Part shown: positions 2,721 through 30,889 of the stretch, piece after piece
Layout: the number at the start of each line of letters is the position of its first letter
Position numbering within the stretch: the first letter of the stretch is position 1
Assembly: GCA_964515985.1 (NCBI GenBank)
Contig: CAZEWS010000006.1
Coordinates: forward strand, 1-33,222
Direction of reading: 5' to 3'
Source of the DNA: an uncultured Rikenellaceae bacterium
GTDB taxonomy: Bacteria; Bacteroidota; Bacteroidia; Bacteroidales; VadinHA17
DNA length: 33,222 nt
Position numbers and translations under genes: made by a program
The notes under the pieces: generated by a model
The model's input: the letters and a program-made list of their open reading frames with translations, nothing else
Told to the model about the DNA's origin: nothing
The model's database searches: none

Positions 2721-4946
2721 ATGGTTACGTCCGTTAATAAAAAATCCTTTGGCGCTGCTCCTGTCTTTTTTACTGCCATTTCCACCATTCTGGGAGCAAT
2801 TCTGTTTCTTCGTTTTGGTTTTGCTGTTGGTACATTAGGATTTTTTGGGGTATTGCTGATCCTTCTGGTAGGACACATGGTCACAATACCCACAGCACTG
2901 GCTTTATCAGAAATTGCCACCAATGAAAAAGTTGAAGGCGGGGGTGAATATTTCATCATTTCCCGCTCATTCGGATTAAACATTGGAGCAACCATCGGGA
3001 TCTCCCTGTTTTTTTCACAGGCAATCAGTGTGGCGTTTTACGTAATTGCCTTCACCGAGGCTTTTGAACCTGTATTCAATTTCTTCAGGGATAGTTTCGA
3101 TATCGTTCTTCCACGACAGGTAGTCAGTCTGCCGGCAATGGCATTATTATCCTTTCTGATATTGAAAAAAGGCGCTAATCTTGGTGTAAAAGCATTGTAT
3201 TTTGTTGTGGTTATTTTATTTATTTCTTTAACGCTGTTTTTTCTCGGTGAGACGGATTATTCCCAAACCAGTGAACCTAAATTCTTTTCAGGCTCATTCC
3301 GCAATATGAGCGATTTTTTTATTGTATTTGCCATTGTTTTTCCGGCATTTACCGGGATGACTGCGGGAGTTGGCCTTTCAGGCGATCTTAAAAACCCCAG
3401 ACGATCAATACCTTTAGGTACCATAACGGCTACTGTTTTAGGAATCATCATTTATCTGTTCATATCCTGGAAACTGAACATTTCTGCCAGTCCGGAAGAC
3501 CTTGTCTCAAACCAGCTCATAATGAGTAAAATTGCTCTTTATGGTGTCATCGTTATTCCTCTTGGATTAGCCGCTTCAACCATATCTTCCGCCCTGGGTT
3601 CTGTTATGGTTGCACCCCGTACACTTCAGGCTTTGGGTGTTGACCGGTCATTTCCATCGTCAAAACTAAATACATTCATTGCCCGTGGTAAGGGTGAAAC
3701 CAACGAACCATTCAACGGTTCAGTCATTACCTGTTTCATTGCATTTATCTTTGTAGCCCTGGGTAGTGTTAATGTTGTTGCAGAGATTATCTCCATGTTT
3801 TTCATGGTGACATACGGTTCCATTTGCCTTATTTCCTTTCTTCATCATTTCGGAGCCGATCCTTCCTACCGGCCTTCTTTTCGTTCAAAATGGTTTATCT
3901 CAATGCTTGGTTTCATTATGTGCACCTGGCTGATGTTTAAGATCAATACCTTTTATGCCCTGGCTGCCTTGGTTTTAATGACATTCATCTATATATTCAT
4001 TCATTATCACCATCGCGAAAGGCAGGGAATTGAAGCTATTTTTCAGGGTACGATGTTCCAAATGAGCCGTAACCTGCAGGTTTTTCTCCAAAAATCAAAG
4101 AAAATTGGCAGCAGCCAAAAGTGGAGACCTTCAGTGATCTGTGTCTCACAGGATTCCTTTGAACGGGATAATGCCTTTAAATTGTTAACATGGATATCCC
4201 ATCGTTACGGCTTTGGCACCTACATTCATTTGATTGAAGGATATTACTCCAGAATTGTTCATCTTGAGGCAGATCAATTGCTAACCCAATTAATCGAGAA
4301 ATCTGAAGATGAAAAATCAAGAGTATTCATGGATACCATAATATCTCCATCCTACACTTCTGCCATCGCCCAGATCATCCAGTTACCAAGCATCTCAGGA
4401 ATGGACAATAATATGATCCTGTTTGAATTTGATAAGGAGAATCCGGTTAACCTGTCTCAAATTATTGATAATTACGCTCTCAGCCGGTCAGGAGATTACG
4501 ATGTTTGTGTTTTGGGAACCTCCGGGAAGAAAATAAATTATAAAAAGGGTATACACGTTTGGATCAGGAGTTACGATTTTGAAAATGCAAATCTAATGAT
4601 CCTTTTAAGCTACATTATCCTGAGCCACCCGGATTGGAAAAAAGGAATGATTAAAATCTTTGATGTTTGTGATGAAGCAGAATTGGATCAGACAAGGAAA
4701 AACCTGGTAAATCTGGTAAGTTCCGGACGCCTTCCTATATCACAAAAGAATATCCGGATTCTGAAAAAAGAAGAAAACGTCCATATCAAAACGCTTATCA
4801 ATGAGAAATCGTCCGAAGCCGGATTAACTCTTTTGGGCTTCCGCGGAGAACAACTGAAGCATGATAAAGAAAGTCTGTTTACCGGTTATGAGAATGTTGG
4901 AAATATTCTCTTTGTTAACGCAAGGCAACAAAAAATAATTAAATGA
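2721..4946 (+). CDS. APC-superfamily permease with SLC12 (cation-chloride cotransporter)-like C-terminal domain
   Basis: About 12 predicted TM helices are followed by a ~300-aa cytoplasmic domain. The track ORF starts at 2523 inside the upstream gene. ATG 2721 (MVTSVNKK; alternative 2712) sits at the upstream stop, 2717-2719. Confidence 0.8.
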   Translation: MVTSVNKKSFGAAPVFFTAISTILGAILFLRFGFAVGTLGFFGVLLILLVGHMVTIPTALALSEIATNEKVEGGGEYFIISRSFGLNIGATIGISLFFSQAISVAFYVIAFTEAFEPVFNFFRDSFDIVLPRQVVSLPAMALLSFLILKKGANLGVKALYFVVVILFISLTLFFLGETDYSQTSEPKFFSGSFRNMSDFFIVFAIVFPAFTGMTAGVGLSGDLKNPRRSIPLGTITATVLGIIIYLFISWKLNISASPEDLVSNQLIMSKIALYGVIVIPLGLAASTISSALGSVMVAPRTLQALGVDRSFPSSKLNTFIARGKGETNEPFNGSVITCFIAFIFVALGSVNVVAEIISMFFMVTYGSICLISFLHHFGADPSYRPSFRSKWFISMLGFIMCTWLMFKINTFYALAALVLMTFIYIFIHYHHRERQGIEAIFQGTMFQMSRNLQVFLQKSKKIGSSQKWRPSVICVSQDSFERDNAFKLLTWISHRYGFGTYIHLIEGYYSRIVHLEADQLLTQLIEKSEDEKSRVFMDTIISPSYTSAIAQIIQLPSISGMDNNMILFEFDKENPVNLSQIIDNYALSRSGDYDVCVLGTSGKKINYKKGIHVWIRSYDFENANLMILLSYIILSHPDWKKGMIKIFDVCDEAELDQTRKNLVNLVSSGRLPISQKNIRILKKEENVHIKTLINEKSSEAGLTLLGFRGEQLKHDKESLFTGYENVGNILFVNARQQKIIK

Positions 4947-9925: not shown

Positions 9926-10885
9926 TCAATATTTATAATTTATACCTTTCAGGTATTCCAAAACATTCTTCTCAATCCGTCTTAATACATTGCTGCTATC
10001 CACCTTTATGAACCTTTCACCTGTGATTTTTTCGTACAGCTCAATGTACCGCTCTGATACCTGGTTAACAAAATCATCTGTCATTTCGGGCACTACCTGC
10101 CCCTCTTTACCCTGAAACCCATGCTTGATTAACCACTCACGCACAAACTCTTTTGAAAGCTGTTTTTGTGGTTCTCCTTTCGCAAGCCTTTCTTCATAAC
10201 CTTCTGAATAAAAATAGCGTGACGAATCCGGGGTATGGATTTCATCAATCAGGAATATCTGGTTTTCTTTTTTACCAAACTCGTATTTCGTATCTACCAG
10301 GATCAATCCTTTTTCTGCAGCCATATCCGTTCCACGCTTAAATAGCTTTTTTGTAAATTCTTCGAGCAATTCGTAATCCTTTTTATTCACTAAGCCCCTG
10401 GCTATTATTTCTTCTTTTGAAATATCTTCATCATGACCCTCTAAGGCTTTGGTGGTTGGCGTGATGATAGGCTCCGGAAACCTCTCGTTTTCCTTCATTC
10501 CATCAGGCAATGGGACTCCACATAGTTTCCTTTTTCCCGATTTATATTCCCTCCAGGCATGCCCCGCCAGATAACCCCTGATCACCATTTCAACCATTAT
10601 GGGTTCCACGTATTGCCCTATGGTAACCATTGGGTCGGGCGACGCAATTTTCCAATTGGGTACGATGTCGTTTGTGGCATCGAGAAATCTTGTGGCAATC
10701 TGGTTCAGTATCTGACCTTTATATGGTATCCCTCTCGGAAGAACAACATCAAATGCTGAAATCCTATCCGATACGATCATTAACAGATATTTGTCCGAAA
10801 TGTTATAAACATCACGAACTTTACCTTTGTAGATACTTTTTTGCCCTGGTAGTCGGTAATTGGTTTTTACTATTGCCTGGTTCAT
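9926..10885 (-). CDS. purC: phosphoribosylaminoimidazole-succinocarboxamide synthase (SAICAR synthetase)
   Basis: [17 protein letters not shown] and [11 protein letters not shown] motifs; about 319 aa, the long-form PurC. Confidence 0.95.
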
Positions 10886-11272
10886 GGTTTTTGGTTCTCG
10901 GTTCCCGGTTCTCAGTTCCCGGTTACAAACACAAAATTCTCCTCCTTAGATAAGGAGCCTGCCCGAAAGAATGAATTCTTTCATTCAGGCGGGGGGAGGT
11001 GGTCTGACCAATTATTTCCTTAATTTTATATCTACCACCCCTCCCCCGTAGGGATGCCTGTGGCACTGTCAAGGAGGGGAATTTTTGTTGGTGCATATAG
11101 CCGAATACAATTCAGCTCTACATCCGTACCTTTCACATTTATCTTTTTCCCCTATGAAATGCTACTTTGCAGCAGTGGCTCTGCCACTATTTCACAGGGT
11201 AAACTTTTGTCTTTTGTATTGTCTCTTAATTCAAATCCCCTTCTCCCCTTCTCCCCTTCTCCTTCACAGACT

Positions 11273-11298
11273 CTGCCAGGTCCTTCGGACGCTGGCAG
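11273..11298. repeat. CTGCCAG-GTCC-TTC-GGAC-G-CTGGCAG hairpin module
   Basis: Seen directly. Same architecture as 11416-11441 and 22228-22253. Confidence 0.8.
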
Positions 11299-11415
11299 GT
11301 CTCTCCCAGTCTCTTAGTCTCTCTTTCTCTCAGTCCCTTAGTCACCCAGTCTCCCCATCACCCAGTCCCATTAGCCTCATCCTCTCAACCTTAGCCTCTG
11401 TTTTTTTTACCAACC

Positions 11416-11441
11416 CTGCCAGGTCTTAGAGACTCTGGCAG
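11416..11441. repeat. CTGCCAG-GTCT-TAG-AGAC-T-CTGGCAG hairpin module
   Basis: Seen directly. The inner stem differs from the other copies by compensatory changes. Confidence 0.8.
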
Positions 11442-11692
11442 GTCTTCTATCAATCAGAAATCCTCAATCAACAATCCGAAATTCAAAATCCCTTAATCCG
11501 AAATCCGCAATTACTCGCTCCCGCAATCCTTCACTCAATCCTGCTCGTGAGACATTCTGTTCGCTTTGCTCTATCCGAAATAAAATGACGAACCGACCGA
11601 CCGACCGAAGTCATTCGGGCAGGGAACTTCGTCCTACTGATCTCTTTTTCATCCCTTTCCCTATTACCCAGCACCTACAATTCTTTCACTTC

Positions 11693-12673
11693 TCACCTTT
11701 CACTCTTCACATCTTTCATCTTTCTTCCTTCATCCTTCTTTTCGTATGCTTTTACAATATCTTTCACCAATTTATGACGAACGACGTCACGCAGATCAAA
11801 TTCAATAACAGCAATTCCCTCGATGTTTTTCAGAATCCTGGTAGCCTGCCATAAGCCGGAATCGTTTATACTCGGAAGGTCAATCTGGGTAATATCTCCG
11901 GTAACAACAAATTTCGAATTTTGTCCCATCCGGGTGAGAAACATTTTAAGCTGGTTCATTGTGGTATTCTGTGCTTCATCCAGGATGACAAAAGCATCTT
12001 CCAGCGTTCTACCCCTCATATAGGCCAATGGAGCGATTTGAATAGTTCCTTCTTCAAGATAAATGGCCAATTTTCTAACCGGAATCATGTCACGAAGAGC
12101 GTCATACAAAGGTTGCAGATACGGGTCAAGTTTCTCCTTTACATCACCAGGCAGGAAGCCAAGATGTTCACCTGCCTCAACAGCCGGCCTCGTCAGAACT
12201 ATCCGGCGTACTTCTTTGTTTTTCAATGCCCTGACAGCCAAAGCAATTGCCGTGTATGTCTTGCCGGTACCAGCCGGACCGAAAGCCAGAAGAATATCAT
12301 TGGTCTGATATTCCTTAACAAGACTAACCTGATTTACAGTTCTGGCATAAATTGGTTTCCCTGTATTTCCGTATATAATTGGCTCTTTAAAATCCCCGTT
12401 TGACGCAGAAATTTGATGAGATGTGTCGAATAACAATTGTTCAATATCCTCCTCATGGATAAGGTTATATTTATGGCAATAATCCACAAGTATATTTATT
12501 TTTATCTCAAAATCGTTAATTTCCTCTTCTTTACCAATGACTTTTAATTCATTTCCTCTTGCTACAATTTTTAATTTAGGGAAAAATCCTTTGATCTTAT
12601 CCAGGTGTTTATTTTTCACCCCGTATATATTAACAGGATCAATCCCATCTAAATATATGATCTTTTCATTCAT
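11693..12673 (-). CDS. phoH: PhoH-family ATPase
   Basis: Walker A GPAGTGKTY, Walker B ILDEAQN and the ITQIDLP motif. Confidence 0.93.
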   Translation of the reverse strand: MNEKIIYLDGIDPVNIYGVKNKHLDKIKGFFPKLKIVARGNELKVIGKEEEINDFEIKINILVDYCHKYNLIHEEDIEQLLFDTSHQISASNGDFKEPIIYGNTGKPIYARTVNQVSLVKEYQTNDILLAFGPAGTGKTYTAIALAVRALKNKEVRRIVLTRPAVEAGEHLGFLPGDVKEKLDPYLQPLYDALRDMIPVRKLAIYLEEGTIQIAPLAYMRGRTLEDAFVILDEAQNTTMNQLKMFLTRMGQNSKFVVTGDITQIDLPSINDSGLWQATRILKNIEGIAVIEFDLRDVVRHKLVKDIVKAYEKKDEGRKMKDVKSER

Positions 12674-15682: not shown

Positions 15683-16184
15683 TTATTCATTCGTTTTATC
15701 TTCCATCAAAACAGGAATAATGGAATACTGGAATACTGGAATAATGCCTGCCCTGTCTACCCTGTGAAACAGCAACTACGTTGCTCCTGCTACGCAGGGT
15801 TTCACGGGGTGAACCCTGTGAAATTTTATTATTTCTTTAGGGTTCACCCTGTTGTATTTATTGATTTATCCTACGTGGTAAAATGCGATGTAGGAGCTAT
15901 TTCTACACGGGAATACTGTCCCTACCAAAGGCCTGCCCGAAAGACTTCGGTCGGGCGGGCATCCCTTTGGGAGAATTAGGTGTTAAAGATATCCCTATGG
16001 GAGAGAACACTAAAACACACAAACACGTAAACACATAAATACAATAAAATAACATTTCAATCGCTAATAATTAAATAAAAGTAATTTAATCCAATACTCC
16101 AATATTCCAATATTCCGTAACTTATAATATCCTTCTTTTAACCGATTCGTTACAAATCTTTTTACAACGTTGCTATTATTCAAT
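15683..16184. repeat. mosaic intergenic repeat cluster B
   Basis: Bounded by octamer arrays GGAATAMT x4 (15714-15745) and their inverted counterpart (16091-16116). Contains a three-way-junction element, a GGTGAACCCT hairpin (15808-15848), and a 42-nt module (15870-15911) shared with 25470-25552. Confidence 0.85.
15760..15809. repeat. 50-nt element able to fold as a three-way junction
   Basis: The outer stem 15760-15770/15799-15809 has 11 bp including one G-T. It encloses AGCAAC-TAC-GTTGCT and CCTGC-TAC-GCAGG with no unpaired linker. An inverted copy lies at 25573-25629. Confidence 0.7.
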
Positions 16185-16904
16185 TTACGCTATTTTCCTC
16201 TCTTTCTTAATTTGTTTATATGCCTCATTCACTTTCTGAAACTTTTCTTTAGCCATCTTTTGAAAATCCTCACCAAGATAACTTACTTTATCCGGATGAT
16301 ATTTGATAGCCATATTTCGGTATGCTTTTTTTATTTCCTCATCTGTTGCATTACGATTAATTTCCAGAATTTTATATGCAGAGTCTGTTTTGGGAACAAA
16401 CATGTATTTTATTGAATCTTTATCTTTTGTACTGATTCCAAGGTAGGATGCAATAAGTTCGATGGTTTTAATCTCTTCCGGATGAATAATACCATCTGCT
16501 ATTGAAATCCCAAACAGAAAATGGATTAACTGCAGACGACTTGAATAATCAAGGTTTTGCTTTATTTGTAAGGCAACATCCCGAACTGAAACATGTTGTT
16601 TCAGGATATCGCGCAACATGATTATTGCTTCTTCGGCTGATTCATGCCCAAAGCTTTGCACGAAGTATTTCTTTACATATTCAAGTTCTGTCAGAAGCAC
16701 CTTTCCATCGGCTTTCATAACGGCAGCAACCAGTACAAGTAAACTCATTGCATAAGCACCGGCAGTAGTTCCCCTCTGATCTAAAACAGCCTTATCAGCA
16801 ACGCTTTCAAAAAGCGATCCAAGTGTAAACCCTAATAACCCGCCAATGGGTCCAAAAAAGGCCCACCCTAAACCTCCGCCTATCCATTTGGCAAATTTTC
16901 CCAT
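16185..16904 (-). CDS. TerB-like domain plus C-terminal J-domain protein (DjlA-like co-chaperone)
   Basis: J-domain AYKILEINRNATDEEIKKAYRNMAIKYHPDK at the C-terminus; glycine-rich TM segment at the N-terminus. Confidence 0.8.
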   Translation of the reverse strand: MGKFAKWIGGGLGWAFFGPIGGLLGFTLGSLFESVADKAVLDQRGTTAGAYAMSLLVLVAAVMKADGKVLLTELEYVKKYFVQSFGHESAEEAIIMLRDILKQHVSVRDVALQIKQNLDYSSRLQLIHFLFGISIADGIIHPEEIKTIELIASYLGISTKDKDSIKYMFVPKTDSAYKILEINRNATDEEIKKAYRNMAIKYHPDKVSYLGEDFQKMAKEKFQKVNEAYKQIKKERKIA

Positions 16905-21118: not shown

Positions 21119-21620
21119 GTAAAGCTGCAAGCTTTAAGTTACAAGCTAATTTCGACTCTTCCGTTCCCGGTTCTCAGTTCCCGGTTCCTGGTTCCTTTTT
21201 TCTTGTTTCTACTTGGTTCTCTACACTACGCGCTTTGTGCTTTTTCCAGCCGAATACAATTCGGCTCTATATTTCGGTCTAAGCTCCCCACCACATCTGC
21301 GTACTGCTTACTGCCTACTTCTGCTGCAACTACTAACTCTTCTCTCCAATCAGTATTCACTTTTTCCCCTGTTAAATGCTACTTCGCAGCAGTGCCCGCC
21401 TGACTTATTCCTGCCCGATTCAGGCCCTGTGAAATCGAATATTATTTCACTGGGCAGGCGGGTTCGTCATTCGAATAATCGTCAATCATTTATCAAACAC
21501 CCGGCACCCAGTATCCCAGCCCGTACCAATCGGCACGTTCGGGCGGGCAGCACCTTGCACCTAACACCCCAGTGAAATATGCTCCTTCGTCGCATTTCAC
21601 GGGGCAGGCCCAAAATCTTC
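21119..21620. repeat. mosaic intergenic repeat cluster C
   Basis: The 24-mer at 21163-21186 is identical to 10901-10924. Also contains the GCCGAATACAATTCGGC module (21249-21272), a nested hairpin (21395-21462) and a CCCCAGTGAAAT hairpin (21567-21604). Confidence 0.85.
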
Positions 21621-21970: not shown

Positions 21971-22227
21971 GCATCGTCCAGCTTTCATTCTTCTAACTCC
22001 ACTCATTATTCTTTCCTGTAAATATAAAAAAATCCTAAAAATTTTCACTATGCTAATCTAAAGGAAGGAGTTCTTCGGACAAACTTTTTTAACATAAACA
22101 CATGAATACATTCACACACAAAAACTTCTTAAACAATTTAGCAGTTTAGCCATTTATCAAACAACCAGTATCCAGCAACTTCCCCTTCATCTTCTCAACC
22201 TAAATCTCAGCCTTTCCTTCACAGACT

Positions 22228-22253
22228 CTGCCAGGTTTTCCAAACTCTGGCAG
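22228..22253. repeat. CTGCCAG-GTTT-TCC-AAAC-T-CTGGCAG hairpin module
   Basis: Seen directly. This is the third copy with a compensatory inner stem. Confidence 0.8.
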
Positions 22254-22400
22254 GTCTTTTTCAAGTCGAATACAATTCGGCTCTACATCCGCACCTTTCA
22301 CTTTTTACTTTTATCTTTTCTCGTTCAGATCCCTCCTTTTGTCGGGATAAGTTCGACTATTGTTTTTCGCTACACCAGTTTGCGAAAATCAAGTCTCACT

Positions 22401-25462: not shown

Positions 25463-25629
25463 ATTATTCCCCTGTAGAAAAAGCTCCTACCCTGATGAAA
25501 TGTTTTCGTACCTCAAATTTCATAGGGCAAGCGTCGCATTTTACCCCGTAGGATAATTATTCCAACGGGGTGAACCCTGCGCAGCAGGAGCAACCTAGTT
25601 GCTGTTTCACAGGGTAGACAGGGTAGGCA
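25463..25629. repeat. composite repeat, an inverted counterpart of 15745-15917
   Basis: It comprises ATTATTCC, the 42-nt module interrupted by a 43-nt hairpin (25491-25533), and a 57-nt segment (25573-25629) that matches the reverse complement of 15745-15801 at 54/57. Confidence 0.8.
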
Positions 25630-25806: not shown

Positions 25807-26286
25807 ATGCTTGATTTTTTCTTATTAGTTTTCGGAATTATCTTTATGATCATCGGATTATTGGGTTGCATTCTTCCCATAATCCCCGGTCCGCCTCTCA
25901 GTTTTATCGGATTATTGCTGCTTCATTTCACAAAATTTGGTGACTTCACCTTTTCATTCCTGGTTATTATGGGATTTGTAGCTCTTGCCGTTACAATTAT
26001 CGATTACATAGTCCCCGTTTGGGGAACAAAAAAATTCGGAGGGTCAAAGGCAGGAATATGGGGAGCAACCATCGGACTGGTTCTTGGAATTTTCTTTTTT
26101 CCACCCATAGGAATTATCCTGGGACCTTTGACCGGAGCGATCATTGCCGAATCCATTACGGGAAAGGAATTTAATAAATCATTTATAGCCGGCCTTGGCT
26201 CTCTTTTCGGATTCTTAATGGGAGTTGTCATTAAACTAATCGCTTCATTTGTGATGACCTATTACTTTGTAGTAGAACTGTTTTGA
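25807..26286 (+). CDS. DUF456-family membrane protein
   Basis: Four TM helices and the N-terminal GCILPIIPGPPLSFIG motif typical of DUF456. Confidence 0.7.
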   Translation: MLDFFLLVFGIIFMIIGLLGCILPIIPGPPLSFIGLLLLHFTKFGDFTFSFLVIMGFVALAVTIIDYIVPVWGTKKFGGSKAGIWGATIGLVLGIFFFPPIGIILGPLTGAIIAESITGKEFNKSFIAGLGSLFGFLMGVVIKLIASFVMTYYFVVELF

Positions 26287-26371
26287 AAAACCTTACCGTT
26301 AACCGCGCTTGTTATTCAGAGATTAATATCATTAGGTCGTTATTAGCTCGCTTCGCTCGCGTAATTCGATA

Positions 26372-26459
26372 GTCATACAATGGTCATACAATAGTCATAC
26401 AATAGTCATACAATGGTCATACAATGGTCATACGATGGTCATATAGTAGTCATACGATA
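26372..26459 (+). repeat. tandem array 1: 8 x 11 bp, consensus GTCATACAATG
   Basis: Units counted by hand, with 0-3 substitutions per unit. Confidence 0.95.
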
Positions 26460-26558
26460 GTTTACCCTGTGAAATTGCGAAGCAATATTTCATGGGGTCA
26501 TTCAGTAGTAATCTGGTAGTATTACTTTGTACTTTTTACTTTTGCCTTTACTTGATTG

Positions 26559-26635
26559 GTCATACAATGGTCAAACAATAGTCAAACAATGGTCATTCAG
26601 TTGTCATTAGGTTGTAATTAGGTAGTGATTAGGTA
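26559..26635 (+). repeat. tandem array 2: 7 x 11 bp, degenerating from GTCATACAATG to GTGATTAGGTA
   Basis: Counted by hand. Preceded by TTACTTGATTG, as is array 3. Confidence 0.9.
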
Positions 26636-26729
26636 GTTTTTACTTTTGCCTTTTCACCCTGTGAAATACGAAGTAATTTTGCTTGCAAAATTATTTCACT
26701 GGGTAAACTTTTGTCTTTTTACTTGATTG

Positions 26730-26795
26730 GTCATACGATGGTCATACGATTGTCATACAGTAGTCATACGATGGTCATACAGTAGTCATTCAATA
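26730..26795 (+). repeat. tandem array 3: 6 x 11 bp, consensus GTCATACGATG
   Basis: Counted by hand. Preceded by TTACTTGATTG. Confidence 0.95.
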
Positions 26796-26850
26796 GTCTT
26801 TAAAAGTTTGAAAATTGTTGGGTATTAATTAACTAAAAAATCAGATTTCG

Positions 26851-26895
26851 ATGCAATTAGAAGAATTAAAAGTATATCAACTTTCCATGACGTGA
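26851..26895 (+). pseudogene. 14-codon stump resembling the N-terminus of a four-helix-bundle (23S rRNA IVS / Avd-like) protein
   Basis: MQLEELKVYQLSMT* follows the (D/E)L.V(W/Y)Q.(S/A)M pattern I recall for this family's N-termini. It runs straight into the right-hand repeat array. Confidence 0.35.
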
Positions 26896-27146
26896 GCGAA
26901 GCGAGCTTATGACAATAAATGACAGCGAAGGCGCAGCCTGAGCGAATGACACGAACGAAGTGAGTATATGACGGCGCAGCCAAATGACAATTGAATGACG
27001 CCCGCAGGGCTAATTACACGAGCGAAGCGAGTGAATGACGCGAACGCAGTGAGCTAATGACTACTGAATGACAGCCGAGCGCAGCGAGGCAAATGACACG
27101 AGCGAAGCGAGTGAATGACGCAAGGCACGCAGTGCCAAGCAAATTA
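26896..27146 (+). repeat. ATGAC-punctuated GC-rich array rich in GNA-triloop mini-hairpins
   Basis: ATGAC occurs 12 times in 26887-27119. The 26-mer ACACGAGCGAAGCGAGTGAATGACGC occurs twice, at 27016 and 27096. GCGAAGC occurs three times, alongside several GCA-loop hairpins. Confidence 0.9.
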
Positions 27147-28145
27147 CTATCCCATTGTTGCTACCATCACAGCCTTAATAGTATGAACCCGGTTTTCTGC
27201 CTCGTCGAATACTACAGATAATTCCGATTCAAAGACTTCGTCTGTCACTTCCATGCTCTCAAGTCCAAATTTTTGATAGGTCTCTTCACCTACTTTAGTT
27301 TCCCGGTTATGAAATGCCGGTAAACAATGTAAAAATTTCACATTAGGATTACCGGTTAATTCAACAACCTTTGCATTTACCTGGTAGGGTATTAATAATT
27401 TTATTCTTTCTTCCCATGTCGCATCCGATTCTCCCATGGAAACCCAAACATCGGTATAAAGGAAATCAACTCCTTTAACTGCTTCTTCAATATTTTTAGT
27501 TATGGTGATTTTTGTGCCGGATTTTTGAGCAATTTCCAAACATTGTGATACCAGTTCTTTATGCTGTTGACAATCCTCCGGGGCAGCTGCTCTGAAATCC
27601 ATTCCCATTTTCGCCGCTCCCACCAGCAGTGAATTCCCCATATTGTTACGGGCATCACCCAGATAGCAAAAACTAATTTCCTGCAAAGGTTTGTCCGAAT
27701 GCTCCATCATGGTCAGAAAATCAGCAAGAACTTGAGTGGGATGAAACTCATCGGTTAATCCATTCCAAACCGGGACTCCCGCATATTTACCAAGCTCTTC
27801 AACGATTTTCTGTCCAAAACCACGATATTCAATCCCGTCATACATCCTTCCCAGAACCCTGGCTGTATCCCTCATCGATTCCTTATGCCCGATCTGTGAT
27901 CCAGTAGACCCCAGATAAGTAACATGCGCACCCTGGTCGTAGGCAGCTACTTCGAATGCACACCGGGTTCGGGTTGAGGACTTTTCAAAAATAAGAGCAA
28001 TATTTTTCCCGTTTAATTTTTGTTGCTCAGTACCTGAATATTTTTCGTTTTTGAGATTAACTGACATATCAAGCAAATAATTAATCTCTTCAGCCGTGAA
28101 ATCCAATAACTTCAGGAAGTTTCTATTGTGTAAGTTAACAGTCAT
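27147..28145 (-). CDS. argF: ornithine carbamoyltransferase (ArgF/ArgI-like; possibly catabolic ArcB)
   Basis: [20 protein letters not shown] and HCLPA motifs, with strong resemblance to E. coli ArgI along its whole length. Confidence 0.95.
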
Positions 28146-28240
28146 TGTTGTTTTATTTATATGGGCTATATTCTAAAAGTTACATTATTTAACAAGGAAT
28201 ATTGTGCCATAGGTATTTCTTTGGAAGAATTTTGGATTGG

Positions 28241-28453
28241 TGGAATAATAGGAACTTCAACCAACCTGCCGGCTGGCAGGTATTCCAATTTTCCAGTATT
28301 ACTCACTCCCGCAATCGTTATTCGCTCCCACAATCCAAGCTCTGGAACCAGCTCATGAAGATTGGCTCTTACTTCGTTCGAGCCAATCGTTCGCTCAATC
28401 CTGCTCGTGAGACATTCTGTTCGCTACGCTCCCAGAATGGTTCCATTATTCCA
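28241..28453. repeat. 213-bp MITE-like element with 14-bp terminal inverted repeats
   Basis: TGGAATAATAGGAAC (28241-28255) pairs with the reverse complement of GTTCCATTATTCCA (28440-28453), giving TGGAATAATGGAAC with one indel. The interior contains a CCTGCC-GGCT-GGCAGG hairpin and the 32-mer shared with 11534-11565. Confidence 0.5.
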
Positions 28454-28524
28454 AAACTATATTATATCAATAAAAAAAATATGCCATCACAAATTATACA
28501 ATACTTAAAATAAAGCGTACATAT

Positions 28525-29487: not shown

Positions 29488-29801
29488 TTTTTTGTCTGAA
29501 ATTTATTCCGGTCTACAAAACTATAAATTTTTTGTTTATTTTTACAGATACTCTGGCAGGTCTTTCTCCAGCCAAATACAATTCGTCTCTACATATTGCT
29601 CCAAGCTCTCCGCGCTACGCTCTCTGCCCCATTCTCCATGCTTCTTGCCCTTTATTTGGAGACTGTGGACTGCTGACTGGCGACTTTCCTGCCTATTGCA
29701 TTTAACTTTCTGATTTTCAAAAATAATTCACCCATAAAGACCTACTTTTAAATATATTTCATATTTTTATAGGCTTATAAATAAAAACCATTCCTATTAT
29801 T
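29488..29801. repeat. mosaic intergenic repeat cluster (half CTGGCAGGTCT module plus GCCAAATACAATTCGTCTCTACAT)
   Basis: The segment 29551-29594 has the same module order as 22245-22288. Confidence 0.75.
29516..29523 (-). promoter_or_regulatory. candidate -7 box TAgtTTTG for arcC
   Basis: Reverse complement of caaaacta, 35 nt upstream of ATG 29481. Confidence 0.35.
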
Positions 29802-30491: not shown

Positions 30492-30889
30492 TCTTACACC
30501 TTACCTCCCGGTTTATCACTTTTAAAATACTTGGTATACCATAGTTCATGTAATTCTTTTTCCTAAATCCTTATACTTCTCCTTAGCCTAATATTAATCC
30601 CTTTCAAAATTAGCAGATTACTATGATAATACCCATTTTTTTAATTCACCCTGTGAAATAATCCCTATCTTTACTTCCTTAAATTATACTTTCTGTCTCC
30701 CGAAACCCGATAACTATCGGGTTCGGGATTGGCAGAAAATCACAAAACACAAATAACCATAATCAAATAAATACCAATATTCAATAACCAAATTCCAAAC
30801 TTCTAAAAAAAATGATCATTGTTTGAATATTGCAATTTCGGATTTGTAATTTACCTGCCCGGTGAAATTTTACATATGTTGTATTAATA
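30492..30889. repeat. intergenic region with partial repeat modules
   Basis: Contains a half-site CACCCTGTGAAATA (30647-30660, compare 26655), the hairpin CCCGAAACCCGATA-AC-TATCGGGTTCGGG (30699-30727), and CCCGGTGAAATTTT (30858-30871). Confidence 0.5.

Follow-up and report, generated by a model that had tools for sequence, protein, structure and literature searches.

The 860-bp non-coding spacer between DUF456 and argF in the window (the whole 33,222-nt stretch of an uncultured Rikenellaceae genome analysed here) is best explained as the decayed remnant of a repeat-flanked four-helix-bundle gene cassette, an explanation we consider likely, including the function proposed below for its arms. 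The cassette has three parts: an upstream arm of GTCAT(T/A) units, a gene of ~120 codons belonging to PF05635/TIGR02436, and a downstream arm of AATGAC units. Both arms are built from one motif on opposite strands, always pointing inward. The locus in the window is a dead copy, and its interest lies in the cassette family that it revealed. Judged by sequence comparison, these cassettes are intact and conserved inside the operons of many Bacteroidota and related bacteria.

The spacer occupies positions 26287–27146, the 860 bp being the distance from the DUF456 stop codon (26284–26286) to the argF stop codon (27147–29, minus strand). It is organised as follows.

25807–26286, plus strand: DUF456, the upstream host gene (a listed ORF; Pfam PF04306 on the identical contig)
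26311–26369, plus strand: left arm, outer degenerate units, with GTTATT at 26311 and 26339 and GTAATT at 26361
26370–26460, plus strand: left arm array 1, 8.5 copies of the 11-bp unit DGTCATACRAT
26465–26497, plus strand: nested hairpin element A, CCCTGTGAAAT...ATTTCATGGGG, a member of a dispersed family and outside the cassette proper
26557–26637, plus strand: left arm array 2, 11-bp units decaying from GTCATACAAT to GTCATTAGGT, GTAATTAGGT and GTGATTAGGT
26653–26707, plus strand: nested hairpin element B, of the same dispersed family as element A, followed by the box TAAACTTTTGTCTTTT
26728–26798, plus strand: left arm array 3, 6.3 copies of GTCATACRRTD
26799–26850, plus strand: AT-rich leader from the arm to the start codon, 52 bp
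26851–26895, plus strand: putative gene stump MQLEELKVYQLSMT, 14 codons and a stop (hmmsearch, alignment)
26887–27147, plus strand: right arm, 12 ATGAC and 2 AATTAC cores
27147–28145, minus strand: argF, ornithine carbamoyltransferase, a host gene convergent with DUF456

Motif counts showed strict segregation within the spacer. GTCAT (n = 18) was confined to the left half (26372–26785) and ATGAC (n = 12) to the right half (26887–27115, within 233 bp), with no GTCAT on the right and no ATGAC on the left. The arrays face inward, GTCAT lying on the left strand and ATGAC on the right. In the rest of the window the two motifs occur at 0.87 and 0.46 per kb, giving chance expectations of ~0.4 and ~0.1 copies. 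The initial annotation had reported at least 18 copies of GTCAT, mostly in three 11-bp arrays, and 12 of ATGAC in 233 bp; our recount confirmed these numbers, and Tandem Repeats Finder placed the arrays at 26369–26461 (8.5 copies), 26557–26637 and 26728–26798. A 20-nt inverted repeat had been described at the outer edges of the spacer. The match itself holds (19/20, growing to 29 nt at 86%), but the placement does not, as the right copy (27012–27031) is internal and forms one of ~5 copies of a 22-bp unit made of AATGAC and a GC-rich filler. Across the spacer, inverted-repeat arms reach 29–39 nt at 79–86% with interrupted pairing.

Cores in the right arm are spaced by 5-nt fillers, by GC-rich fillers with GCGAAGC (n = 3), or by triloop hairpins (gcccGCAgggc, ggcGCAgcc twice, and ggcacGCAgtgcc), and the last core shares one base with the argF stop codon. 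The G + C content of the right half is 53%, against 37% for the window. One outer unit of the left arm also carries a GC-rich filler, AGCTCGCTTCGCTCGC, which mirrors the right-arm units. Two copies of a dispersed hairpin family (CCCTGTGAAAT...ATTTCAyrGGG), unrelated to the arrays and with 16 matches in the window versus 0.9 expected, split the left arm into its three arrays. The box TAAACTTTTGTCTTTT after the second of these has another copy at position 11200 of the window, and other spacers in the window are likewise rich in 7–8-bp tandem repeats and hairpins.

The predicted RNA fold of the spacer has z = −4.4. A promoter and terminator scan of the spacer found no terminator-like sites, and promoter-like matches did not exceed chance level. 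Rfam returned nothing relevant for the window at the gathering threshold, for the spacer at E up to 10, or for 13 intact cassette loci. A CRISPR array was rejected, since the 11- or 22-bp units run head to tail without unique spacers.

Between the two arms lies the ORF stump, co-oriented with DUF456 on the plus strand; the initial annotation had given it 14 codons, and this proved correct. It matches model positions 1–14 with E = 0.038 (hmmsearch, with a query of only 14 codons) and aligns at 79% identity with the N-terminal 14 residues of an intact homologue. As the stump has only 14 codons its statistical support by itself is modest, and the argument leans on its position and on the orthologous 30-codon stump described below. 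The stump ends where an in-ORF ATGAC (Met13–Thr14) passes into right-arm filler. The comparison identifies it as the probable stump of a four-helix-bundle (PF05635/TIGR02436) gene and the locus as a presumably non-functional, remnant member of the family. No intact cassette copy was seen in the 33 kb of this organism.

Intact homologues score 86–104 bits against PF05635 and 88–103 bits against TIGR02436, and PF05635 is the only family found between the arms of intact cassettes. Their gene, of ~120 codons, encodes a four-helix-bundle, Avd-like protein of the type found in 23S rRNA intervening sequences (IVS). With a dN/dS of 0.015–0.14, this protein is under strong purifying selection. Its closest solved structure is a homopentameric ring, 2GSC (PMC4990558). 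PHROGs gave only a weak match, to “Avd protein of DGR” (diversity-generating retroelement), and PADLOC gave no match; with no relatives among IMG/VR contigs either, a phage origin was rejected.

Loci in which the same flanks enclose an intact gene, which the initial annotation had suggested seeking, were indeed found: five GTDB genome loci, among the matches listed, carry intact PF05635 genes between GTCAT and ATGAC arrays, as do most of 80 metagenome loci. These 80 loci were sampled on protein similarity or pattern alone and are the closest relatives of the query. Matches to the cassette include Draconibacterium, Odoribacter and Rikenellaceae. A search of plasmids matched only a distant PF05635 gene from a Pseudanabaena plasmid (38% identical), which has no arrays around it, so that arms are not universal to PF05635. 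Within 300 bp upstream of their genes GTCAT occurs 339 times and ATGAC 63 times, and within 300 bp downstream ATGAC occurs 428 times and GTCAT 18 times. This corresponds to 15 GTCAT per kb upstream against a background of 0.75 per kb, and to 18.5 ATGAC per kb downstream against 1.06 per kb. At least three motifs were present on each proper side in 46 of the 65 loci having both flanks. The leader before the start codon is 45–140 bp long in intact cassettes, a length class that matches the 52-bp leader of the spacer. That GTCAT lies upstream on the sense strand of the gene was dropped as a polarity rule, as it is automatic for any gene between inward arms. What is informative is the inward orientation itself, the excess of hairpins in the arm that follows the gene, and co-orientation with host genes.

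Among long downstream fillers, a perfect stem of at least 3 bp was present in 56 of 146, compared with 12 in shuffles, and in 50 of these 56 the loop had 3 nt (GAA 33, AAA 5, GCA 4, GTA 3). Such mini-hairpins, which are GC-rich and show R-N-A triloops when read on the ATGAC strand, are enriched in the gene-downstream arm, and the right half of the spacer is alike. A strand test on the mini-hairpins, comparing G-T with A-C mismatches, gave 1 versus 6 and 1 versus 1, from very few cases. The upstream neighbour has the orientation of the cassette in 55 loci and the opposite one in 4; for the downstream neighbour the counts are 49 and 12. Host neighbours include coupled genes, such as the small and large subunits of NiFe-hydrogenase or a histidine kinase and a sigma-54 regulator, and the neighbours of five intact cassettes are housekeeping genes. 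Between near-identical orthologues the array copy number and the fillers differ, with motif and orientation kept.

At the argF–DUF456 site itself, one relative (L205) represents an empty site, having only a 44-bp terminator hairpin between the two genes. Another relative, represented by two assemblies (L207 and L208), has an orthologous relic that is less eroded: its stump retains 30 codons, and a GTCAT array with the fillers of the spacer begins at the argF stop. The spacer had been described as the empty shell of a cassette, and this description gains support from the same flanks enclosing intact genes elsewhere, from the relative with an empty site and from the orthologous relic. The cassette thus entered the DUF456–argF spacer, which in L205 contains only the hairpin. 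We suggest that the gene was later lost through a deletion that probably joined the in-ORF ATGAC (codons 13–14) to the downstream arm. This would have left behind the arms, the 52-bp leader and 14 codons, and the unrelated hairpin repeat would then have nested twice in the left arm. The present locus probably encodes nothing functional, and the relic would be at most a long structured spacer replacing the terminator between two convergent genes.

Since intact cassettes lie co-oriented inside host operons and have no terminators, they are presumably read through from the host promoter. A transcript crossing the cassette would show GUCAU repeats on entry and AUGAC repeats, with hairpins, on exit. 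The GUCAU and AUGAC arms could pair, so that the insert would fold as a self-contained stem-loop domain, by analogy with the 23S rRNA intervening sequences with a PF05635 protein, which are set apart in this way and excised by RNase III. Across phyla the core motif stays constant, and it is thus probably also read by a conserved factor, for which the cassette’s own protein would be the obvious candidate. The arms may therefore serve long-range pairing or insulation, the binding of the encoded protein, or both.

Several observations are in line with pairing between the arms, the fold score of the spacer (z = −4.4) among them. In two loci whose proteins are not each other’s closest relatives (L180 and L184), both arms have switched together from GTCATT to GTAATT, and in L137 one arm has GTCAGG and the other CCTGAC. 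The two arms share 6.1 9-mers within a locus compared with 2.2 across loci, and minimum-free-energy folds contain 53 arm-to-arm pairs compared with 16 when one arm is reversed. On the other hand, the fillers of the two arms are often non-complementary and many loci pair only in 5–6-bp blocks, which RNase III would cut poorly as a substrate. The co-variation could also arise, with no selection for pairing, if the inverted arrays undergo gene conversion.

It is possible, although we consider it considerably less probable, that the arms of what would still be a decayed cassette serve mainly to bind the encoded Avd-like pentamer at multiple sites. Its target would be the core in single-stranded RNA or DNA, in the manner of the TRAP ring and its spaced triplets, and the mini-hairpins would keep long fillers compact. 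From Bacteroidales to Ignavibacteria and Balneolales, the core GTCAT(T) is conserved, as is much of the 11-mer GTCATTCAGTD, despite the fast turnover of the arrays, and the protein is conserved in parallel, all of which favours binding. Furthermore, units are spaced by 7, 8, 10, 11, or (with a hairpin) 14–22 bp across homologous cassettes, which suits a single-strand reader better than a phased-duplex reader, and the core varies mainly at position 3, which can be C, A or T. Avd is the nucleic-acid-binding partner of the DGR reverse transcriptase. The homopentameric ring of the closest solved structure, 2GSC (PMC4990558), would also fit such a reader. Yet all units of L184 are GTAATT, with a protein 80% identical to GTCATT-flanked proteins, and a sense transcript shows GUCAU in one arm and AUGAC in the other, so only one arm would be bindable as RNA.

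More speculatively, these intra-operonic cassettes would be widespread in the FCB group (Bacteroidota, Ignavibacteria, Balneolales), and their protein, as a pentamer of the Avd/IVS family, and their arms might together form a self-recognising nucleoprotein or RNA module, of which the classical ORF-bearing 23S intervening sequences would be a special case. The role of the protein would be to read spaced cores in single-stranded nucleic acid, and that of the arms to fold the insert away from the host transcript. We hold this broader proposal only tentatively.

We think it rather unlikely that the cassette moves, or once moved, as a mobile element at the DNA level, its arrays being subterminal repeats (as in Tn7 and CACTA/En-Spm) or REP-like single-strand hairpin sites for a recombinase supplied in trans, and its gene-less inverted doublets MITE- or REPIN-like derivatives. 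Mobility would account for the presence and absence of the cassette at the argF–DUF456 site and for its occurrence in many unrelated operons. It would also fit the gene-less doublets, which are common in the inward arrangement (> <) and never seen in the outward one (< >) inside one spacer, among the matches listed, and an inversion of the cassette between L026 and L142 inside unchanged flanking genes. C-GNA-G triloop mini-hairpins are moreover typical of stable single-stranded DNA, as in d(GCGAAGC), the Streptomyces telomere palindromes and parvovirus termini. Against this, no transposase, recombinase or reverse transcriptase was found in or beside the cassettes examined, no cassette relatives were found among IMG/VR viral contigs, and no target-site duplication was evident at 26311 and 27147; the spacer of the relative with the empty site has diverged too far for an alignment. 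In an all-against-all comparison of loci, near-identical cassettes occurred only at one and the same locus, paralogous cassettes being ~70% identical at the nucleotide level, from which it follows that mobility is ancient or rare; recent transposition was rejected on the same grounds. Cassettes are also kept at orthologous sites while their flanks have diverged to 70–90% identity, and the protein is under strong purifying selection.

An assembly artefact of the repeat-rich stretch is highly improbable. The source is a metagenome-derived genome, and contigs from two independent Logan short-read assemblies of other runs break inside the right array, but they agree with the window for the first 55–75 bp of it. 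Over 6750 bp the sequence is identical in an independent NCBI MAG contig (GCA_009619225.1, WJOX01000288.1), both L207 and L208 contain the homologous array where it adjoins argF, and the same architecture recurs at many independent loci. Copy numbers within the arrays could nevertheless well be different. Equally improbable is that the arrays are slippage-born simple repeats or a REP/BIME-like terminator substitute around a chance ORF: other spacers in the window are full of short tandem repeats and hairpins and the 11-bp arrays clearly expand and contract, but the stump matches the N-terminus of a gene that occupies this position and orientation at dozens of loci, a relative has an orthologous stump of 30 codons, several phyla have motif, orientation and hairpin type in common, and the spacer showed no terminator-like sites.

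A decayed four-helix-bundle cassette remains our preferred reading, and its intact counterparts share a selected protein, one short motif in inverted arrays that bracket the gene, and fast array turnover with core and orientation kept. They sit inside essential-looking operons without breaking them. To our knowledge, no function has been established since the 1990s for PF05635 proteins outside diversity-generating retroelements, and we know of no agreed origin for ORF-bearing rRNA intervening sequences. The arrays offer a concrete cis partner for the PF05635 protein and, if the self-recognising module proposed above is correct, it would explain both the role of this protein and how such inserts arise. 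The predictions are that the protein binds GUCAU or AUGAC repeats, that RNase III processes transcripts at the arms and that host operons are insulated, for which core switches, ORF-less doublets and inversions are available as natural variants. For annotation, the cassettes explain a class of long ordered non-coding spacers and assembly breakpoints in Bacteroidota genomes.

The initial annotation could assign the spacer to no described class, and this still stands. GTCAT-armed four-helix-bundle cassettes were, as far as could be checked, not described in Rfam or the searchable literature, a literature search with sequence words, family names and Avd/IVS/repeat terms having returned no description of the cassette. 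Several known systems share part of the architecture. Type III toxin-antitoxin systems (ToxIN) also have a tandem array directly upstream of a small protein gene and transcribed with it, but the cassette units are 7–11 nt and not at least 34 nt, a second inverted array lies downstream, and the protein has no nuclease family signature and no PADLOC match. Plasmid centromeres and iterons, such as R1 parC with its two sets of 11-bp repeats bound by ParR, resemble the locus in the window, where 11-bp units run in phase in blocks on both sides of a short centre. In the cassettes, however, the blocks are inverted, chromosomal and in operons, with no partition or replication genes, and an iteron or centromere reading was dropped because spacing is not fixed (7, 8, 10, 11, 14–16 or 20–22 bp across homologous cassettes).

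Transposons with subterminal arrays and their MITEs (Tn7, CACTA/En-Spm, Ac/Ds) resemble the cassettes in having multiple copies of one short motif in opposite orientation at their ends, and in leaving internally deleted derivatives that keep only the ends. The cassettes differ in having no transposase, defined terminal inverted repeat, target duplication or evidence of recent transposition. REPIN-RAYT systems also place a gene between short inverted repeats, are accompanied by many more gene-less inverted doublets dispersed in intergenic DNA, and show long-term vertical inheritance. The cassette protein, however, is not an HUH/Y1 (IS200/IS605-like) transposase, the repeats are tandem arrays of pentamer cores (also in the gene-less doublets) whereas REPs are single 20–40-nt palindromes, and there are apparently many gene copies per lineage.

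Avd of diversity-generating retroelements is a distant homologue within the four-helix-bundle fold family PF05635 (PMC10053308), consistent with the weak PHROG match and the 2GSC pentamer. Unlike these retroelements, the cassettes have no reverse transcriptase and their neighbours are housekeeping operon genes; indeed, the identical contig of 6.7 kb carries DUF456, OTCase, AA_kinase and FtsK as neighbours, and no reverse transcriptase.

The closest known kind are the 23S rRNA intervening sequences of Leptospira, Coxiella, Brucella and CPR bacteria, which share the S23p/PF05635 family. That of Coxiella combines a PF05635 ORF with a terminal stem of 28 bp, which RNase III cuts, and with tandem heptamers ahead of the ORF (PMC4990558). 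As in the cassettes, for which pairing is predicted, the ORF is bracketed by inverted, pairable sequences, with short tandem repeats of variable copy number upstream (GACAGAT heptamers in Coxiella; PMC4990558), the insert is co-oriented in a host transcription unit without terminating transcription, and ORF-decayed and ORF-less versions exist (PMC4990558; PMC11270868). The cassettes differ in lying between protein genes and not in rRNA helices 25 or 45 (Rfam found no rRNA in the window), and their arms are arrays of 5–6-nt cores with variable fillers and GNA mini-hairpins, where the intervening sequence has one unique 28-bp stem. Finally, the intact cassette protein is under strong purifying selection, whereas the Coxiella ORF is decaying.

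The spacer between the DUF456 and argF genes is 860 bp long and has two convergent neighbours:

25807–26286, + strand, DUF456 gene, left neighbour of the spacer
27147–28145, − strand, argF gene, right neighbour of the spacer

The repeat counts of the initial annotation were reproduced, with all 18 copies of GTCAT in the spacer lying within 26372–26785 and none in the right half, and all 12 copies of ATGAC lying within 26887–27115 and none in the left half; outside the spacer the window contains 0.87 and 0.46 copies per kb, respectively. Tandem Repeats Finder likewise recovered the three 11-bp tandem arrays of the left arm (26369–26461, 26557–26637 and 26728–26798). The inverted repeat matching at 19 of 20 positions, described as marking the outer edges, was confirmed and can be lengthened to 29 nt at 86%, but it does not constitute a unique terminal repeat; its right copy belongs to a set of about five 22-bp units (AATGAC plus GC-rich filler). 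G+C reaches 53% in the right half of the spacer, against 37% in the window. An NCBI MAG contig is identical over 6750 bp, and two further short-read assemblies enter the right array and end inside it.

Two members of an unrelated hairpin family (CCCTGTGAAAT...ATTTCACAGGG, often followed by TAAACTTTTGTCTTTT) separate the three left arrays; the family is dispersed through the window with 16 intergenic matches versus 0.9 expected:

window 11150–11215, 15760–15824, 21367–21604, 25517–25614, 26465–26497, 26653–26707 and 30649–30868, hairpin family
L207 (a locus in a relative) 4580–4640, one hairpin copy nested in the orthologous arm

Other spacers in the window also contain many short repeats and hairpins. 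A second spacer with inverted symmetry (15683–16185) has four copies of GGAATAMT at 15714–15746 and three of the reverse complement CCAATATT at 16090–16116, enclosing ~340 bp of hairpin-rich sequence, and may be an analogous emptied element built from a different repeat family. The 800-bp spacer at 10879–11738 contains dense 7–8-bp tandem arrays (GGTTCCC, TCCCCTTC, TCTCTCAG, AATCCGA, CTTTCAC), and GGTTCCC/GTTCCCG heptamers, whose arrays are similar to cyanobacterial STRR-type arrays, occur again at 21163–21195, within 21163–21320. A small palindromic family (GACTCTGCCAGG...CTGGCAGGTC; 11267–11300, 11416–11447, 22225–22255, 29551–29565) is often adjoined by a box, AGCCGAATACAATTCGGCTCTACAT (11093, 21250, 22268, 29573). 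In the spacer upstream of argF (28240–28455), the inverted pair GGAATAATAGGAAC ... GTTCCATTATTCC encloses the palindrome CTGCCGGCTGGCAGG and TCGCTC-type short repeats.

A scan of one genome per GTDB species found at least 120 loci with four GTCAT at an 11-bp period. Among the matches listed, the window's unit DGTCATWCRRT is common to ~40, mostly from Bacteroidota, Ignavibacteria and Balneolales, and spacers with both orientations have the GTCAT array followed by the ATGAC array in every case. The same flanks surround an intact gene, as had been envisaged, in at least five loci where both arrays enclose a gene of ~120 codons. In five loci this gene belongs to PF05635 (23S rRNA intervening-sequence protein, 86–104 bits) and also to TIGR02436 (four helix bundle protein). 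The 14-codon stump at 26851–26895, MQLEELKVYQLSMT*, aligns with residues 1–14 of intact PF05635 proteins, with 79% identity to that of locus L026 and an hmmsearch E of 0.038 for its 14 codons (model positions 1–14). The window copy is a dead relic. Its stump ends at an ATGAC at codons 13–14 that passes straight into right-arm filler, and Met-Thr (ATG ACN) is natural at these codons in some homologues; together these suggest that the gene was lost by a deletion joining the ORF-internal ATGAC to an ATGAC unit of the arm.

Relatives support the interpretation of the spacer as the empty shell of a cassette. The nearest named ArgF relatives are from Maribellus (80%), which places the organism within the Bacteroidia. 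In L205, a locus with 81% ArgF identity, argF and DUF456 are convergent and 44 bp apart, an empty site whose whole spacer (4503–4546) consists of a single bidirectional terminator-like hairpin, AAAAAGAGCGGAA tcatg TTCCGCTCTT; unlike L205, the 860-bp window spacer contains no terminator-like site. Another relative, represented by L207 and L208 (82% ArgF identity), has an orthologous relic, with a GTCAT array from the argF stop codon onward and the same fillers as the window (tagccctgcgggc and tcactcg..gctc). The CCCTGTGA hairpin family occurs in it once, and a stump of 30 codons, MQLEELKIYQLSMDIAEKVHEVMKQILYYP*, faces argF in the same convergent arrangement as the window's stump. The cassette therefore predates the split of the window and L207/L208 lineages and has been eroding since; it is an old insertion.

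To sample intact cassettes by protein similarity alone, we used peptide patterns and tblastn against JGI metagenomes, giving 80 loci, those most closely related to the query. Within 300 bp upstream of the gene there were 339 GTCAT and 63 ATGAC, and within 300 bp downstream 428 ATGAC and 18 GTCAT; 46 of the 65 loci with both flanks had three or more of the appropriate motif on each side. Densities were 15.3 per kb (GTCAT upstream) and 18.5 per kb (ATGAC downstream), versus 0.75 and 1.06 per kb in the remaining sequence of these loci. Any gene flanked by arms that point inward automatically has sense-strand GTCAT upstream, whichever strand it occupies, hence it is the inward orientation itself, plus anatomy, genomic setting and evolution, that is informative. 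A Pseudanabaena plasmid PF05635 gene, 38% identical, has no arrays.

The core GTCAT is followed by T in 89% of family units, unlike the A of the window's left arm, and cores are spaced at 7, 8, 10 or 11 nt, or at 14–16 and 20–22 nt with GC-rich filler. Perfect stems of at least 3 bp occur in 56 of 146 long downstream fillers, versus 12 in shuffles, and in 50 of these 56 the loop is three bases long (GAA 33, AAA 5, GCA 4, GTA 3); upstream fillers have the complementary loop, TTC. As the window's right half holds exactly these elements (GCGAAGC, gcccGCAgggc, two ggcGCAgcc and ggcacGCAgtgcc), the left–right asymmetry already noted is a family trait (the left side AT-rich with 11-mers, the right side GC-rich with 22-mers), and the stump's orientation is consistent with it. 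Two loci (L157 2200–2500, L132 640–880) have long AATGAC arrays of 15–19 copies, not GTCAT, upstream of the gene, which may belong to a neighbouring cassette as its downstream arm or reflect a tandem arrangement. Gene-less inward doublets of a G-rich variant unit (GTCATTTAGGG/GTCATTTGAGG), with up to 10 units then 17 inverted units and 50–150 bp between arrays, occur in Saprospiraceae and Chitinophagales MAGs (L005, L030, L075, L102).

Neighbours are mostly co-oriented with the cassette gene (upstream 55 versus 4 opposed, downstream 49 versus 12), at a median gap of 134 bp, and five checked cassettes all lie between functionally coupled genes:

L134 2431–3027, intact, NiFe-hydrogenase small / large subunits, tightly coupled operon
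L136 2455–2933, intact, histidine kinase / sigma-54 response regulator, tightly coupled operon
MmgE/PrpD / citrate-lyase-like gene
sugar transferase / GT2 glycosyltransferase
OPT transporter / PqqD-like gene

Neither a reverse transcriptase nor a transposase adjoins these five or the window locus on its contig. Cassette position is unchanged in sets of loci with flanks 70–90% identical, and the protein's dN/dS is 0.015–0.14 between same-position pairs, in which the arrays diverge strongly in the number of units and the type of filler (4 versus 13 units, for instance, between loci with 99% identical flanks). Locus comparison found no near-identical cassettes at different loci, nor were any found in the viral contigs searched. 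The gene is inverted between L026 (4200–4840) and L142 (2490–2875), which share the flanking gene pair at 72–76% nucleotide identity, the outcome expected from recombination between inverted arms. The arms accompany a protein gene under selection as its conserved cis partners, sit at read-through positions and are not terminators.

In a transcript from either side, GUCAU repeats would come first and hairpin-bearing AUGAC repeats at the end, and pairing of the two arms would fold the insert as a separate domain. We infer, as the preferred reading, that this isolates the insert in the manner of 23S rRNA intervening sequences with a PF05635-family protein (PMC11270868); in that of Coxiella, RNase III cuts a 28-bp terminal stem and the ORF is preceded by tandem heptamers (PMC4990558). 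Pairing is supported by joint switches of both arms from GTCATT/AATGAC to GTAATT/AATTAC in L180 (12 and 16 units) and L184 (4 and 5 units), whose proteins are not nearest relatives, by GTCAGG with CCTGAC in L137, by 9-mers shared more between arms of one locus than of different loci, and by predicted folds (in 39 cassettes a mean of 53 arm-to-arm pairs versus 16 with a reversed arm; z = −4.4 for the window spacer). Against it, fillers are often mismatched, many predicted helices are only 5–6 bp, and gene conversion between inverted arrays could give the same co-variation.

The core and much of the 11-mer are the same across phyla despite fast array turnover, which argues for a conserved trans-acting reader of the motif. 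The encoded protein would be the obvious candidate, being homologous to the pentameric ring 2GSC and a distant homologue of DGR Avd, and variable spacing and compact mini-hairpins would suit single-strand recognition. Reading at the DNA level, with the arms as transposon-like ends or REP-like sites, is viable since C-GNA-G triloops typify highly stable hairpins in single-stranded DNA, although we consider it unlikely.

The cassette has no description in Rfam or the literature searched, so the view that it matches no described class holds. The window locus does not lie in rRNA, ruling out an rRNA intervening sequence, and it fails the defining features of CRISPR; DGRs are ruled out by the lack of a reverse transcriptase, REPIN-RAYT systems by that of a Y1 transposase and iterons by phasing that is not fixed. 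Closest in probable working is the ORF-bearing intervening sequence, from which the cassette differs in its placement in mRNA operons and in having repeat arrays in place of a unique stem.
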